DNA of 4,924 bases, taken from the IMG/VR virus record IMGVR_UViG_2713896900_000006. The stretch is one strand, 5' to 3'. Source of the DNA: a virus (lineage: Duplodnaviria > Heunggongvirae > Uroviricota > Caudoviricetes). Every line of letters starts with the position of its first letter. The first letter of the stretch is position 1. The translations under genes and the position numbers were made by a program. Positions 66 through 4,915 of the stretch are shown here, one piece after another. A model generated the notes under the pieces. It searched no databases and was not told the DNA's origin. It saw only the letters and a program-made list of their open reading frames with translations.

Positions 66-94
66 ACAAAAAAGCCCGCCTGAACCGGCGGGCT
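66..94 (-). terminator. Rho-independent terminator-like hairpin downstream of lom
   Basis: Plus-strand 73..80 (agcccgcc) is the exact reverse complement of 87..94 (ggcgggct), with a 6-nt loop at 81..86. On the minus-strand RNA the 8-bp GC-rich stem is followed by UUUUUGUGGGG (plus-strand A-run 68..72). It sits between the lom stop (121..123) and the stf start (56). Confidence 0.6.
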
Positions 95-120: not shown

Positions 121-720
121 TCAGAATTTATAACCGACACCAACGATGAAACCATCAGTGCGCCAGTCACCACTGCCGGAGCCTTCATAAGCAATATCAA
201 TGGCCACGGATTCGGTCGGGTTAAACTGCACGCCAGCCCCCCACGCCAGAGACGTGTTGCTGTGGCGACCGTCATCACTTCCGGTCAGCACGTCGTGCGT
301 TTTTCCCTTGTTGTCAGTTACGCGGAGATAATCCCCGGAAAAAGTCGACACACGGCTGTAAGCCACACCCGCCATCGCATACGCGCTGAACCATTCATTC
401 ACGCGCACAGACGGCCCCGCCATCACGCTGAACCAGCGGTTACGCACGGAATCTTCATGCCAGCGGGTATCGCTGTAATGGGTCAGCTGGCGATTCTTGT
501 CTCCTGCATAGCTGAATGACGTCACCAGCCCCAGCGTGTCCGTAAACTCATAACGGTATTTCACGTTAATCCCGTTCAGATCATCGCTGCCGGGAACGTT
601 CGTCGAGGCATGAAGATACCCCGCGCTCAGTGTGGACTGATGTTCTGAGGCCCCTGCAGGCGCACCGGATACGGCCAGACAGATGGCTGCGGACAAAATT
701 GATACACAAACTTTACGCAT
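121..720 (-). CDS. lom: Lom-family outer membrane beta-barrel protein (Ail/Lom/OmpX/PagC family), 199 aa
   Basis: Complete ORF in the six-frame track. The N-terminus MRKVCVSILSAAICLAVSGAPAGA/SEHQ looks like a signal peptide with an AxA cleavage motif. The C-terminal segment AIDIAYEGSGSGDWRTDGFIVGVGYKF matches the lambda Lom C-terminus as I recall it and ends in a terminal aromatic Phe typical of outer membrane beta-barrels. The internal motif INVKYRYE is also shared with lambda Lom. It lies immediately downstream of J, as in lambda. A Shine-Dalgarno GAGAGG (plus-strand 726..731) sits 5 nt upstream of the ATG. Confidence 0.9.
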   Translation of the reverse strand: MRKVCVSILSAAICLAVSGAPAGASEHQSTLSAGYLHASTNVPGSDDLNGINVKYRYEFTDTLGLVTSFSYAGDKNRQLTHYSDTRWHEDSVRNRWFSVMAGPSVRVNEWFSAYAMAGVAYSRVSTFSGDYLRVTDNKGKTHDVLTGSDDGRHSNTSLAWGAGVQFNPTESVAIDIAYEGSGSGDWRTDGFIVGVGYKF

Positions 721-741: not shown

Positions 742-769
742 AATAAAAAAGGCGCCATTTCTGGCGCCC
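742..769 (-). terminator. Rho-independent terminator-like hairpin between J and lom (tJ-like)
   Basis: Plus-strand 751..757 (ggcgcca) is the exact reverse complement of 762..768 (tggcgcc). The minus-strand RNA reads GGCGCCA-GAAA-UGGCGCC, a 7-bp stem with a GNRA-type GAAA tetraloop, followed by UUUUUUAUU. It begins 19 bp downstream of the J stop codon (788..790). Confidence 0.65.
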
Positions 770-787
770 GTATCTGGGTTATAAAAT

Positions 788-3700
788 TCAGCTAATCGTG
801 ATGCCTGCAGTGGCTTTCTTCATCACCACAACCAGCAAATCGCTGATACTGGCTGTGGGATACCAGTTATTCATCAGCCACGCTGATACCGAAAACTCCA
901 GCGTCATGTGGCCGCGACCAGCTGGCATATCAATAACGCCTGTATAAATCAGCGTACTATCCTGTGTGGTACGGTTATAAATCTCAGCACCGTTTTTCTT
1001 CACAATCAGGCGGCAGGACGAATAAATATCGTTATTCTCCCGCTCATGCTTAGCACCGCGAAACGCCACTGCGGGAATAACAATCTGCCGATCAAACGGC
1101 TGATCGTCATAGACTCTGACGGTAATGGTCCCTGATGGCCACTGCGCAGGTGCCCGGGAGTCCCGCGGGAAAGCTTTTCCTACTGTTTTAACAATATCGC
1201 CTTCAATCTGGTTGGCAGACAGCTTTCCCATAATCCGGCAATTCTGGTTAATCGTGACATTGTTGAGCGTCCCGGAGTTCGCATTCACGTTACCGCTGAT
1301 ATCAGCGTTTTTCGCCGTCAGCCGCCCGTCCGGTGTCAGGGAAAATGCCGGTGGATTTCCACCACTGGTAATGGTCGGGGCCGTCAGGCGCTTCAGGAAC
1401 ACGTCGTTCATAAATATCTGATTGCCCTGCGCCACAAACATCGGCGTTTCATTCCCGTTTGCCGGGTCAATAAACGCGATACGGTTAGCGGCAACCAGAA
1501 ACTGGCTCAGCTTGCCTTCTTCCGTGTCCTCCATGCTGAGGCCAATACCCGCGACATAATGTTTGCCGTCTTTGGTCTGCTCAATTTTGACGCCCCACAT
1601 GGCATTCCACTTATCGTTAGCATCCTGCCACTCTTTCGAAAACTCCTCCAGTTTGCTGGCGTTATCCTCCGTCAGCTCGACTTTTTCCAGCAGTTCCTTG
1701 CCGAGATGAGATTCGGTTATCTGGCCTTTAAAAAAATCCAGGTAACCTTTTGCATCATCGCTCGCCCGACCGACAGCCTCCACAAATGCCGATTTGCCAA
1801 CGGTGTTCACACTGCGGATATAAAAGTAGTAATCAGAACCCGGCTTAATATTGATACTGGCGGCTATCCAGTACATCCCCGTGCCAAGATAGCGCGCGCT
1901 GGTTTCAACCTGCCGGATATCGGCAATCCGCTTTTCCGAAAACCAGAACTCAAACTGTACCGTCGGGTCATAAACTGCAAGATGCGGCGTGGCGGTTATC
2001 TGAAAATAGCCCGGCGTCAGCTCAATCTGTGACGGCGCTGCCGGTGCGGCAATCCTGAACGATACCGACGCCGGGTCGCCCTGCTGTCCCCACGCATTTA
2101 CCGCCCGGACTGTCAGCCTGTAGTTCCCCAGCGCCAGTTGCCTGAAACGATATTCGGTTTCCGTCGTCCGGGCCGTGCTGACCAGCCGCTCACTGCCGTC
2201 ATCTGCTGCCACGGTCAGACGAAGCATAAAGCTCACCCCCTTCACCACCTTCGGCGTGTCCCAGCGCGCCAGCACCTGATATTCCCCGCTGTCTGCGGTG
2301 ACTTCGGCGGTCAGGTGCTGCACCGCTGGCGGCGTGACACCATTCACCGTGCCGCTCTGGTCGCCGTCAAAGTGCGCACCGTTATCCACGATAGCCTCTT
2401 TTTCAGGCACATGCTGCACGGCAGTGACAGCGTACGTGCCGTCGTCGTTCCCACGGATACTCACGCAGCGGAACAGGCGCTGGCGCAGCGTCGGCAGCTT
2501 CAGCCCCCACACGCTGTATCCGGCAACGCCGTCAGGAACCCGGCTCACTTTCACCTTCACGCCGTCGGTGACGGACTGGACCTCCACGCTGACCGGATTG
2601 CCACTTCCGTCAACCAGGCTTATCAGCGTGGTGCCGGAGGATGGCAGCGTGATTTCACGGTCGAGCGTCAGCGTCCGGGTCTGGCTGTTTACCGCCAGCA
2701 CGCGCCCGCCGGTGCTGATACCGGCATAGTCATCATCACAGATTTCAATGACATCGCCCGGCACATGGCGAAGCCCTTCTGCGCCCACGCTGAAGTCCAC
2801 GGTCTGCGTTTCCAGCAGTTCTGTTTTAATCAGCCACAGCCCGGCGCGGTGTGCCTGCCCCCGGCTGGTACAGCCAAAAGCATCCATCTTCGTGACGTTA
2901 CGACCGTAACGGGCAATGGCCTGCGTATCCTCCACAAGCTCTGTCGCCGTCTCCCAGCCGTTGTTCGGGTCAATCCAGTTCACCTCAACGGCATTATGGC
3001 GGTCTTTCAGGGCGCTAAAGCTGTAGCGGAACGGCGCGCCATCATCCGGCATCACCACATTACTGCGGTTATAGGTCCACACCTTATCCGACGGTCGGTC
3101 CTGCACGAACGTCAGCGTCTGCCCGTTCCATACCGGCATACAGCGCATCGCCGAGCAGAAATCACTGAGCACATCCCACGCCTTGCGCTGTGTGGTCAGG
3201 TAAGCGTTACAGGTGATGCGCGGCTCCGTGCCACCAAAGCCGTCCGGCACCGACTGGTCGCAATTCTGGCCGATGACATACAGCGCCCATTTGTCCACAT
3301 CCGCCGCACCGAGACGCTTCCCCATGCCGTAGCGCGGATGGGTCAGCATATCCCACAGACACCAGGCCATGTTGTTGCTGTATGCCGGTTTAAACGTCCC
3401 GTCCCAGATACCGCTGTATTGCCGCGTCTGCGGGTTATAGTTCGACGGCACCTGCAGAATGCGCCCGCGAAGATGATAATTACGGCTCACCTGCTGGCTG
3501 CTGAACTGTTCCGAGTCCACCTGCACGCCGACCAGTGCCGTGTTCGGGTAGCACTGTTTCACATCGATGATTTCGGTGTATGACGACCAGAGCGTTTTGT
3601 TCTGCAGCTGGTCTGTGGTGCTGTCCGGCGTCATCCTGCGCAGCCGGATGTTGAACGGGCGCGGCGGCAGGTTACCCACCACCACCGAGGCCAGATACTG

Positions 3701-4183
3701 CGAGGTGGTTTTGCCCTTAATGGTGATGTCTTTTTCCGTCACCCAGCCACCGTTACGTTGTATCTGAACCAGCAGGCGGACTTCCGACGGATTCCTGTAA
3801 CCCTTTGAGGTGGTTTCCACCAGTGCCTGCACACCGAAGGTAAAGCGCAGACGGTCGATGTTTGCAGACGTGATGGTCCGGGTGATCGGCGTGTCGTATT
3901 TCACTTCCGTACCCAGCACCGTCTCGGATCCGGAGGATTCAAATCCCTCCGGCGGTGTCTGTTCCTGCTCACCTGCCCGGAACACCACCGTGACACCAGA
4001 GATGTTGGTATTCCCCTCACTGTCCAGCACCGGTGTACTGTTCAGCAGCACACTTTTTAATCCATCCACCGGACCTTCAATCGGCCCTTCGCTGATGGCA
4101 TCGATCACACTCAGCAACTGCGTGGATTTCAGGTTGTCCTTCGCTTCGCGCGGGGTATGCCCCTTACTGCTGCCTTTACCCAT
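788..4183 (-). CDS. J: Tail tip / host specificity protein J (central tail fiber), 1131 aa
   Basis: Complete 3396-nt ORF. The N-terminus [54 protein letters not shown] and most of the first ~975 residues match lambda gpJ as I recall it, apart from scattered substitutions. The length is one residue short of lambda J (1132 aa). A GGAG Shine-Dalgarno motif (plus-strand 4192..4195) sits 8 nt upstream of the ATG. The C-terminal ~155 residues are diverged (see findings). Confidence 0.95.
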
Positions 4184-4243: not shown

Positions 4244-4915
4244 TCAGCGACCAATCACCACAACCTGACCACCATCCCCTTCGTCTGCCGTGCTGATCTC
4301 CTGAGAAACCACCCGCGACCCCACACGCATTTCACCGTACAGAACAGGCAGAACATTACCCTGGGCAACCATGTTATCCAGTGAGGAGAAATAGGTGTTC
4401 TGCTTACCGTTATCCGTTGTCTGTGTGCGGGGAGTTCTGGCTTTCGGTGCCAGCATCTGAGCCACACCGCCGAGCACCATACTGGCACCGAGAGAAAACA
4501 GAATGCCGGTCATACCACCGGCACCAATGGCAGCCCCCCATGCTGCAAGGGTGGCTCCGGCGGTAAAGAATGATCCGGCAATGGCGGCTGCCCCCAGGAC
4601 AATCTGGAATACGCCACCTGACTTGGCCCCTGCGACTCTGGGAACAATATGAATCACAGCGCCATCAGGCAGAGTCTCATGTAACTGCGCCGTTAATCCG
4701 GACGTGCTGACATCCTGCCCGGCAATCCGTACCTGATACCAGCCGTCGCTCAGTTTCTGACGAAACGCCGGGAGCTGTGTGGCCAGCGCCCGGATGGCTT
4801 CAGCCCCCGTTTTCACACGAAGGTCGATGCGGCGGCCAAATCGTTGTAAATCCCCGTAAAGGCAGATGCGCGCCATGCCCGGTGACGCCAGAGGGAGTGT
4901 GTGCGTCGCTGCCAT
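4244..4915 (-). CDS. I: Tail assembly protein I, 223 aa
   Basis: Complete ORF. The protein begins MAATHTLPLASPGMARICLYGDLQRFGRRIDLRVKTGAEAIRALATQLP and is essentially identical over its full length to lambda gpI as I recall it, with the same 223-aa length. It contains the glycine/alanine-rich hydrophobic stretch GAAAIAGSFFTAGATLAAWGAAIGAGGMTG. It lies immediately upstream of J. Confidence 0.93.
   Translation of the reverse strand: MAATHTLPLASPGMARICLYGDLQRFGRRIDLRVKTGAEAIRALATQLPAFRQKLSDGWYQVRIAGQDVSTSGLTAQLHETLPDGAVIHIVPRVAGAKSGGVFQIVLGAAAIAGSFFTAGATLAAWGAAIGAGGMTGILFSLGASMVLGGVAQMLAPKARTPRTQTTDNGKQNTYFSSLDNMVAQGNVLPVLYGEMRVGSRVVSQEISTADEGDGGQVVVIGR

Follow-up and report, generated by a model that had tools for sequence, protein, structure and literature searches.

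The C-terminal domain of J determines host range in lambdoid phages, long-tailed Shiga-toxin phages included. The J gene described here, found in a window of 4,924 nt (the whole stretch of DNA analyzed, IMG/VR record IMGVR_UViG_2713896900_000006, Caudoviricetes), ends in a sequence unlike that of lambda and raises two questions: (i) where this tip came from and (ii) which receptor it recognizes. J is carried by an Escherichia albertii prophage; its product is RefSeq WP_059275009.1 of that species (exact cluster look-up), and the gpJ annotation is already at NCBI. The source contig is a 4.9-kb piece of a draft assembly. The protein matches lambda J (PDB 8iyk) over residues 1-1130 with 2321 bits (phmmer), is 1131 aa long versus 1132 aa in lambda, and has the same domain order. 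Pfam matches to PF24801, PF13550, PF24421, PF24489, PF09327, and PF12421 make up the complete lambda-type J set of hub domains, FNIII, tail-tip domain, and C-terminal Ig domain. The I-J-lom-stf neighborhood is also that of lambda: I precedes J, and lom and the start of stf follow it, the last identified by the conserved Stf start MAVKISGVLKDG. The lom-like product is diverged from lambda Lom. Phage 21 has an annotated terminator at the site homologous to the terminator-like hairpin, and the hairpin sequence is identical in phages 640R1 and VT1-Sakai. An Rfam scan of both strands of the stretch gave no match, and a 481-aa antisense ORF within J (2138-3583, plus strand) was put down to the high GC content of the coding strand.

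Table 1. Coordinates of features in the 4,924-nt window; residue numbers refer to J.
Feature	Position	Strand	Basis
Gene J, tail tip / central tail fiber, 1131 aa, intact ORF	788..4183	-	ORF list
J residues 1-947, lambda/434-like: hub, FNIII, alpha-helical shaft, most of straight fiber	1343..4183	-	
J residues 948-996, distal straight-fiber layers, no longer lambda-like	1196..1342	-	Identity counts, mismatch map
Ig-like receptor-binding domain (RBD), residues 997-1131	791..1195	-	AF2, Foldseek, RBD identities
Predicted receptor loop L1, residues 1004-1017	1133..1174	-	Flanked by predicted strands 997-1003 and 1018-1026
Predicted receptor loop L2, residues 1047-1052, ERENND	1028..1045	-	Alignment mapping
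Predicted receptor loop L3, residues 1074-1077, QDST	953..964	-	Identical: 0/4 lambda, 1/4 A8, 2/4 640R1
Predicted receptor loop L4, residues 1104-1115	839..874	-	Identical: 9/12 A8/phi330/phage 21, 3/12 lambda
Terminator-like hairpin then T-run, directly 3' of J stop codon	750..769	-	Consensus scan
lom-like gene downstream of J (Ail/Lom outer-membrane beta-barrel, 199 aa)	121..720	-	ORF; PF06316, PF13505
Tail assembly gene I, upstream of J	4244..4915	-	ORF; 222/224 aa identical to lambda gpI

The first-pass annotation had proposed that J tracks lambda gpJ to about residue 975 and diverges over the last ~155 residues, and alignment to lambda J (NC_001416) bears this out. Residues 1-975 are 96.7% identical (943/975, 32 substitutions) versus 43.3% for residues 976-1131 (68/157 aligned columns), a contrast far greater than chance would produce (Fisher p = 6e-61). 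Positions 791-1258 correspond exactly to codons 976-1131, and the stop codon lies at 788-790. Identity to lambda in 25-aa sliding windows is 100% for starts 870-920, 80% at 960-984, 52% at 980-1004, and 23-40% past 1040. Residue 976 does not mark the start of the change at the DNA level, however, as the departure from lambda begins upstream, at ~1340-1376 (~residue 936-948). The conserved islands described within the divergent segment are genuine: FPR (1005-1007), WPSGT (1015-1019), PFDRQIV (1029-1035), and FRG (1041-1043) are common with lambda. For the island read as VIDMPAGRG, lambda has IVDMPAGRG, leaving DMPAGRG as the common part, and at the terminus, where lambda J ends in VIKKQALGISVV, KKxxxGI is common to both.

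The segment had also been described as AT-richer than the rest of J, in keeping with module exchange. The shift is real, with 49.9% GC in the last 471 nt of J versus 57.9% in the first 2925 nt, and GC3 of 55% versus 70.5%. It is weak evidence for exchange, because a drop, though a weaker one, occurs at the same place in lambda's own J (54.6% versus 57.5%) and because GC is already at 53% in the lambda-like codons 801-975. We therefore downgraded AT-richness as a sign of foreign origin.

Module exchange itself is well supported by sharp breakpoints, across which successive segments of J are nearest to lambda/434, then to 4A7, and then to 640R1/VT1-Sakai. The body (residues 1-947) is about 97% identical to lambda in protein sequence, its DNA is 85-98% identical to lambda and 434 in 60-nt windows, and over residues 640-947 dS from lambda is 0.28 with dN/dS of 0.10. 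Residues 948-996 are identical to 4A7 at all 49 positions versus 36/49 for lambda, with 7 nucleotide differences from 4A7 versus 42 from lambda, and are near-identical to the phage 21 protein. Protein identity to 4A7 extends over residues 948-1004, and the 4A7 lineage is the apparent recombination partner for this interval. For what follows we use the working name class I for RBDs of the VT1-Sakai/640R1 type, defined by equal loop lengths and identity of 85% or more over residues 997-1131. A 165-bp stretch at the 3' end is identical to 640R1 and VT1-Sakai (positions 707-872 are 100% identical to 640R1), and DNA identity with class I phages covers the final 48 nt of J together with the terminator and the lom start. 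Judged by these alignments, the last ~135-185 residues of J are a non-lambda receptor-binding module that was swapped in, and it is the version commonest in Escherichia prophages. Homologous recombination among lambdoid prophages would have joined a lambda/434-like body (1-947), a 4A7/21-type fiber (948-1004), and a class I RBD (997-1131). Such J mosaics are already well known.

The RBD is 92% identical to that of 640R1 and 90% identical to that of VT1-Sakai, with no indels, and 59-61% identical to those of A8, phi330, and phage 21, 41% to that of lambda, and 39% to that of 434. On its sequence, then, the tip is a diverged allele of the VT1-Sakai/640R1 class. Its loop lengths equal those of VT1-Sakai (Sp15), vB_EcoS-640R1, 2G7b, PPompW, and long-tailed Stx2a phages, and it differs from these at 11-14 residues, mostly in or next to loops (here/class I: PAQW/PERW, FRG/FSG, TTQDST/TALDNT, GRG/GHG, LMNNW/LVNNW). 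The tip is 87-91% identical to 57 phage records and is closest to an E. albertii fragment, P0004 (95%). Class I tips occur in about 3,390 of 5,426 complete E. coli genomes (roughly 60%), with 3,334 of the 5,426 giving hits of 80% or more nucleotide identity over at least 80% of the segment, and also in E. albertii, E. ruysiae, and Shigella flexneri. Among Escherichia prophages, class I is the J tip with the widest distribution. The homologous-protein search returned mostly short J fragments, suited to alignment rather than to a full-length census. In many of the database relatives J is truncated or frameshifted, and in VT1-Sakai it is split by mutation. Pairwise dN/dS is about 0.1 versus 640R1 and VT1-Sakai (dS 0.43-0.51), and a search for diversifying selection within class I on these pairwise values gave no overall signal. 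Variable positions within the class are only modestly more frequent in the loops (19/36) than in the framework (33/99; Fisher p = 0.047).

The segment had been read as the receptor-binding end of J, and both the PF12421 (Ig_GpJ_C) match and the fold agree with this. An AF2 monomer model of the RBD, with a mean pLDDT of 78 (82-96 over most of the domain), has eight main strands and folds like the solved gpJ RBDs. The best four Foldseek matches are 9wcb, 9wca, 8xck, and 8xcj (E 2e-19 to 9e-17, probability 1.00), with query-normalized TM-scores of 0.69-0.70 for the monomer model. The first two are from A8 gpJ, a natural E. coli prophage C terminus on lambda J (9wcb is the complex with OmpC), and the last two are the lambda RBD, closed (8xck) and open with LamB (8xcj). 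A8 is the best solved match in structure (E 2e-19, 65-66% identity, 65% for 9wcb) and in sequence (241 versus 171 bits). Protein comparison with characterized J variants likewise placed A8 nearest among solved structures (59% over the RBD) and phage 21 equally close (61%). We placed the RBD boundary at 997, which aligns with phage 21 I1025, a residue described as "just before the RBD" (PMC11336670). The residue here is also Ile.

In lambda gpJ, it is four bottom loops, L1-L4, that go into the receptor; the opening is then passed on upward (PMC11101478). We mapped the corresponding loops here, the bottom and top labels being taken from the strand order of the monomer model and the published lambda description rather than from measured coordinates or a trimer model. 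The predicted bottom loops are 28% identical to those of lambda (10/36) versus 46% in the framework, and 39% identical to those of A8 versus 67% in the framework. L1 has the lambda length, with WPS in common and 7/14 residues identical; it is 4 residues longer than in A8 and phage 21, and is variable within class I. L2 also has the lambda length, with 0/6 residues identical, and is the most variable stretch inside class I. In A8, phi330, and phage 21 its place is taken by the ENFNSNNQQS hairpin, which is 5 residues longer and is modeled in phi330 as pointing into the OmpC barrel (PMC12502783). The combination of long L2 and short L1 (RT[NS]-SYASGT) typical of A8 and phi330 is thus absent. L4, one residue shorter than in lambda, aligns with the phi330 hairpin A1015-P1020 (ANNWTP), modeled on the rim of OmpC (PMC12502783). 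Here the hairpin reads MNNWYP, keeping NNW-P, and the C-terminal strand is also common with A8 and phi330. The 4A7 J, like that of phage 21, is 61% identical over the RBD and shares L4, with L1 and L2 length differences as in A8. The classical OmpC-using tip of phage 434 belongs to the same fold family, on a lambda-like N-terminal body, but differs from the tip here in the length of all four loops, with 8/45 loop residues identical. L1-L3 match none of the characterized J proteins, and the binding surface is therefore not that of lambda.

Potentially addressing the second question, all characterized relatives use a trimeric porin, and for that reason the receptor of this tip is most likely one too. 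Lambda and phage 21 use LamB (PMC11101478, PMC11336670), and A8, 1A2, phi330, and 434 use OmpC (PMC11338833, PMC12502783, PMC11101478). The OmpC requirement is experimental for A8 (PMC11338833) and for the Stx2a phage phi330 (PMC12502783). The native receptor of phage 21 is LamB, and I1025T adds OmpC (PMC11336670); the phage 21 RBD is about 94% identical to that of A8 and aligns to that of lambda only via two loop indels. Gifsy-1 J uses OmpC in Salmonella; with 18% identity to the lambda C terminus and no usable sequence in the paper, it was set aside as a reference. A 2026 receptor-prediction preprint deals only with Drexlerviridae-type GpJ and calls the lambda C terminus unrelated to those. 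A literature search for receptor data on class I phages (640R1, 783R2, PPompW, PhiR, 2G7b) found none. The PhiR phages come from Brenes & Laub 2025. The sequence of 1A2, Eligo's second OmpC-using chimera and a possible class I tip, was not in the main text, the accessible supplements, or either preprint.

By homology with the lambda gpJ-LamB and A8 gpJ-OmpC complexes, three RBD copies would sit at the fiber tip, with loops L1-L4 of each inserted into the porin trimer in the outer membrane. Binding would spread the RBDs apart, and the conserved top loops may relay this movement to the conserved fiber, opening the tail. The conserved islands would then be beta-strands and fiber-facing loops that fit the invariant machinery, and the substituted stretches would be the receptor-facing loops. 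Taken as a whole, we consider it probable that J is a mosaic with a swapped class I tip, whose Ig-like RBD docks to a trimeric porin. Within this reading, the identity of the domain, the mosaic, and the differences in the loops are direct results, whereas how the loops are oriented, how the tail is triggered, and which receptor is bound are inferred.

As to which porin, OmpC is our leading guess, at somewhat less than an even chance. Pointing to it are the rank of A8 among solved matches and the L4 motif NNWxP, common with the OmpC binders A8 and phi330. We also counted towards it that both natural E. coli gpJ tips from a delta-lamB screen used OmpC (PMC11338833). Against it, phage 21 is as near to this RBD as the OmpC binders are (61% versus 59%) and has the same L4 hairpin as A8; since phage 21 uses LamB, NNW-P does not separate OmpC from LamB use. 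L1 and L2 lengths and WPSGT go with lambda, not with A8 and phi330, and L2 is not only shorter than the barrel-entering hairpin of phi330 but unrelated to it in sequence. Class-level homology cannot tell the two porins apart, as phage 21 and A8 show, with a common framework and different receptors. The RBD could instead still use maltoporin LamB, perhaps preferring E. albertii or certain E. coli alleles, its divergence being an alternative solution. We regard this as unlikely, though well short of negligible: the phage 21 RBD is about equally far from that of lambda and uses LamB natively (PMC11336670). The earlier reading is supported in part, for the receptor-binding role and the module exchange; divergence alone is insufficient to establish its proposal of a different receptor or LamB allele, although the tip sequence and predicted L1-L3 are non-lambda. 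Among characterized proteins WPSGT in L1 is common to lambda alone, which together with the L1 and L2 lengths favors LamB. Lambda S1012 and D1107, reportedly specificity-changing sites (in the work of Meyer et al. 2012), fall in L1 and L4, respectively. Speaking against LamB are the few bottom-loop residues that match lambda, with none in L2 or L3, and differences from phage 21 in both length and sequence of L1 and L2 (5/14 and 2/11 identical).

It is doubtful that the RBD binds another outer-membrane protein, such as OmpF, a different porin, or a lineage-restricted allele; if it did, the commonest Escherichia prophage J tip would use a receptor so far assigned to no lambdoid J. The fit of L1-L3 to no characterized J would be consistent with this, as would the greater variability of loops than framework, a pattern compatible with loops that track a polymorphic surface protein. 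The fold is also plastic, given that few mutations suffice to bring OmpF or OmpC within reach of lambda and phage 21 J (PMC11336670, PMC11101478). Yet all characterized members of the fold family natively use LamB or OmpC, and the low pairwise dN/dS within the class argues against strong diversifying selection overall. Similarly, we assign a low probability to the idea that class I tips bind neither LamB nor OmpC, or dock with a different geometry via their loop set. Finally, J could be a decaying remnant of a defective prophage, its C-terminal divergence being without current function. The short draft-assembly fragment, the truncated or frameshifted relatives, and the split VT1-Sakai J would be compatible with decay. 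We nevertheless find it very improbable: the ORF is intact, I, lom, and the stf start are in lambda order, every fold-defining residue is conserved, and dN/dS of about 0.1 at dS of about 0.45 from the nearest alleles indicates long-term purifying selection.

Returning to the preferred reading, a swapped class I tip on a trimeric porin, this J is nothing new in kind: the tip was already known to be widespread, and the E. albertii prophage carries a diverged allele of it. J tips are being modified so that lambda-based DNA delivery particles can be retargeted, as with A8 and 1A2 gpJ, and the commonest Escherichia J tip class is without a published receptor in the literature accessible to this analysis. 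If class I were to bind neither LamB nor OmpC, Escherichia lambdoid prophages would mainly enter by an uncharacterized route. A receptor assignment for class I would improve receptor prediction in prophages.

Window 791-1258 corresponds exactly to codons 976-1131 of the tail tip protein J. Identity to lambda J (NC_001416) is 96.7% over residues 1-975 (32 substitutions) and 43.3% over residues 976-1131, a contrast beyond chance (Fisher p = 6e-61) that confirms the divergence of the C terminus proposed in the first-pass annotation. The conserved islands described there are present in both proteins, with the corrections that lambda reads IVDMPAGRG and ends ...KKQALGISVV. The segment is AT-richer, as claimed (49.9% GC versus 57.9% in the remainder of J), but this is a weak argument for exchange, since lambda's own J has a smaller drop at the same place (54.6% versus 57.5%) and GC is already down to 53% in the lambda-like codons 801-975 of the window J. 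Among the 32 substitutions in the conserved body, three are clustered Glu-to-Gly changes (E555G, E560G, and E578G; residues 555-578, window ~2450-2521), and a second substitution cluster lies at residues 653-681.

That the segment is the receptor-binding end of J was borne out by a Pfam match to PF12421 (Ig_GpJ_C) at the C terminus and by structure prediction. An AlphaFold2 model of residues 956-1131, built on an alignment of 27 relatives, is a beta-sandwich with eight main strands (mean pLDDT 78; 82-96 across most of the domain). The four top-ranked PDB structures in the Foldseek search (E-values 2e-19 to 9e-17) are the A8 gpJ central fibre, open with OmpC (9wcb) and closed (9wca), and the lambda fibre, closed (8xck) and open with LamB (8xcj); the fifth is far weaker (E 1e-4). 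The segment thus comprises the Ig-like receptor-binding domain (RBD) and the final layers of the straight fibre. The start of the RBD proper was set by phage 21 I1025, placed just before the RBD (PMC11336670), which aligns with window J I997.

Coordinates of genes, mosaic pieces of J, and predicted RBD loops
Feature	Position	Strand	Remarks
Tail assembly gene I	4244-4915	-	222/224 aa identical to lambda gpI
J	788-4183	-	1131-aa ORF
Terminator-like GC-rich hairpin and T-run	750-769	-	directly after J
lom-like gene, Ail/Lom family	121-720	-	199 aa
Second terminator-like GC-rich hairpin and T-run	73-94	-	directly after lom
Side tail fibre gene, first 18 codons	1-56	-	start at 56; MAVKISGVLKDG... 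/ MAVKISGVLKDGAGKPIQ...; runs off contig end
J piece 1	down to ~1376-1340 (residue ~947)	-	lambda/434-like, 85-98% nt, dS 0.28
J piece 2	residues 948-1004	-	nearest 4A7, close to phage 21
J piece 3	~1165 to 872	-	640R1 and VT1-Sakai, yet only ~87% nt; dS 0.43-0.51, dN/dS 0.10
J piece 4	872 to 707	-	165 bp, 100% identical to 640R1 and VT1-Sakai
RBD proper	791-1195 (residues 997-1131)	-	
L1	residues 1004-1017		one sandwich end
L2	residues 1047-1052		same end as L1
L3	residues 1074-1077		same end as L1
L4	residues 1104-1115		same end as L1
Opposite-end loops	DDQPFD 1027-1031, NG 1064-1065, MPAG 1087-1090		

When its final (3') 1.6 kb is compared as DNA with lambda, 434, 4A7, phage 21, 640R1, VT1-Sakai, and phi330, J proves to be a mosaic of at least four pieces. 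Piece 2 encodes the same protein as 4A7 over residues 948-996 and has 7 nucleotide differences from 4A7 versus 42 from lambda. Piece 4 takes in J's final 28 codons and, in its variable region, the closing 48 nt; it continues through the stop codon and terminator hairpin into the first codons of lom. The 100% identity at 707-872 versus ~87% (dS ~0.45) immediately upstream suggests a recent recombination junction within the last strand of the RBD. Module exchange at the C terminus is thus upheld by the piecewise nearest relatives and the 165-bp identical stretch, and the exchanged unit begins ~30 residues upstream of the start first proposed.

A tblastn search of 50,697 phage records with the 156 C-terminal residues resolved discrete classes (the names are our own working labels), which are separated by loop indels in alignment with the reference proteins. 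Class I includes the window sequence, VT1-Sakai, 640R1, 783R2, 2G7b, PPompW, many long-tailed Stx2a phages, and several PhiR phages, with 87-91% identity to the window over 156 aa and 90-92% over the RBD. RBD identity is 59-61% for class II (A8 and phi330, which use OmpC; phage 21, which uses LamB; 4A7, BP-4795, and others), 41% for the lambda class (LamB), and 39% for the 434 class (434, mEp460, and others; OmpC). Class I sequences at ≥80% nucleotide identity occur in 3,387 of 5,426 complete E. coli genomes, usually with 2 copies in each, and also in E. albertii, E. ruysiae, and Shigella flexneri. The precise allele of the window is less common: among the matches listed, the best complete-genome E. 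coli match has 91% nucleotide identity. Six records lie between 95% and 99%, and the closest protein is an E. albertii fragment (190 aa, 95%) with the allele's signature residues. Of the RBD's relatives in the databases, many are fragments or frameshifted. The VT1-Sakai J (AP000400, 499-3971) is annotated as two overlapping shortened CDSs, 'truncated protein by a mutation'; the tip of that prophage is probably defective.

Strand order in the AlphaFold2 model separates loops L1-L4 from those at the opposite end and, with the published description of lambda, leads us to infer that the L1-L4 end faces the receptor. The opposite-end loops are kept in all classes, and class differences fall in L1-L4. 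Identity in L1-L4 versus the remaining RBD is 28% versus 46% to lambda and 39% versus 67% to A8; within class I, 19/36 loop positions are variable versus 33/99 elsewhere (p = 0.047). In lambda gpJ, four bottom loops (L1-L4) go into the receptor; the bottoms spread and the tops close, a change relayed via the beta-prism and helical shaft that opens the tail (PMC11101478). By homology, the window RBD would act through the same spreading, closing, and relay. The pattern of islands and gaps then probably reflects strands and fibre-facing loops constrained to fit a conserved trigger machinery, with the substituted stretches representing divergent receptor-facing loops.

No published receptor for class I was found in the literature searched. 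Every characterised member of the fold family uses a trimeric porin, making such a receptor likely here. OmpC is our leading candidate, at somewhat short of an even chance. A8, the nearest solved relative of the window RBD, needs OmpC, which was also used by both natural gpJ tips from the Eligo delta-lamB screen (PMC11338833). Phi330, whose RBD is almost identical to that of A8, fails on delta-ompC K-12 and is rescued by complementation (PMC12502783). Its L4 hairpin (A1015-P1020, ANNWTP), modelled on the OmpC rim, corresponds to MNNWYP in the window J, but its L2 hairpin (E953-S962, ENFNSNNQQS), modelled pointing into the OmpC barrel (PMC12502783), is replaced by ERENND, 5 residues shorter and unrelated in sequence.

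This shortened hairpin counts against OmpC; LamB is our second candidate, less probable than OmpC. Phage 21 uses LamB natively and gained OmpC only via I1025T at the trimer axis (PMC11336670); it shares its framework, L2, and L4 with A8, so likeness in these features does not discriminate between the porins. The window L1 and L2 also equal those of lambda in length, and the WPSGT of lambda persists in L1. L1-L3 match none of the characterised J proteins, which would fit a receptor other than OmpC or LamB; this is the least probable of the three outcomes, as all characterised family members natively use OmpC or LamB. Overall, the RBD identity and module exchange in the first-pass interpretation stand, and a receptor change relative to lambda is plausible only.

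The window is the complete 4,924-bp contig BBVK01000046.1 (assembly GCA_001514685.1), with lambda tail gene order and every gene on the minus strand. One end holds the side tail fibre start and the other cuts the I/K region, so both contig ends lie in sequences that recur among lambdoid prophages and that probably interrupted the draft assembly. The lom-like gene adjoining J is a further exchanged module. Its protein diverges strongly from lambda Lom except in the C-terminal strands (...DIAYEGSGSGDWRTDGFIVGVGYKF identical). The two hairpins flank lom, setting it off as a separate unit; terminator-like sites numbered 2, versus 0.9 per 1 kb expected from shuffled sequence. A 481-aa ORF runs antisense to J (2138-3583, plus strand) where J has 59-64% GC. 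Its Arg/Ala/His-rich translation is usual for antisense frames of GC-rich genes, and it was not treated as a gene.

Phe924 (window 1412-1414) is kept in J, in a run of residues with 100% identity to lambda. The F924S change lets lambda evade HepS, an abortive-infection nuclease of Gifsy-1, and the residue is Ile in Gifsy prophages (PMC13043305); the retained Phe924 predicts that the window J would trigger HepS. The J ORF is intact, neighbouring genes are in order, and dN/dS is ~0.1 against the nearest alleles with deep synonymous divergence, indicating that the RBD has been under purifying selection.

It is textbook knowledge that lambdoid phages exchange the J C terminus and that this region controls host range, and natural diversity at its positions was reportedly analysed by Maddamsetti et al. 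in 2018. PMC11101478 cites the lambda-434 hybrids, structures with the cognate porin have been solved for two RBD classes, and chimeric J proteins have found practical application (PMC11338833). The window J tip belongs to the commonest class, as a diverged allele from E. albertii, and it already carries a gpJ annotation (RefSeq WP_059275009.1, 'phage attachment tail tip protein J [Escherichia albertii]'). Its one point of wider interest is that the commonest J tip class is one without a published receptor in the literature searched, and that class-level homology fails to predict LamB versus OmpC.
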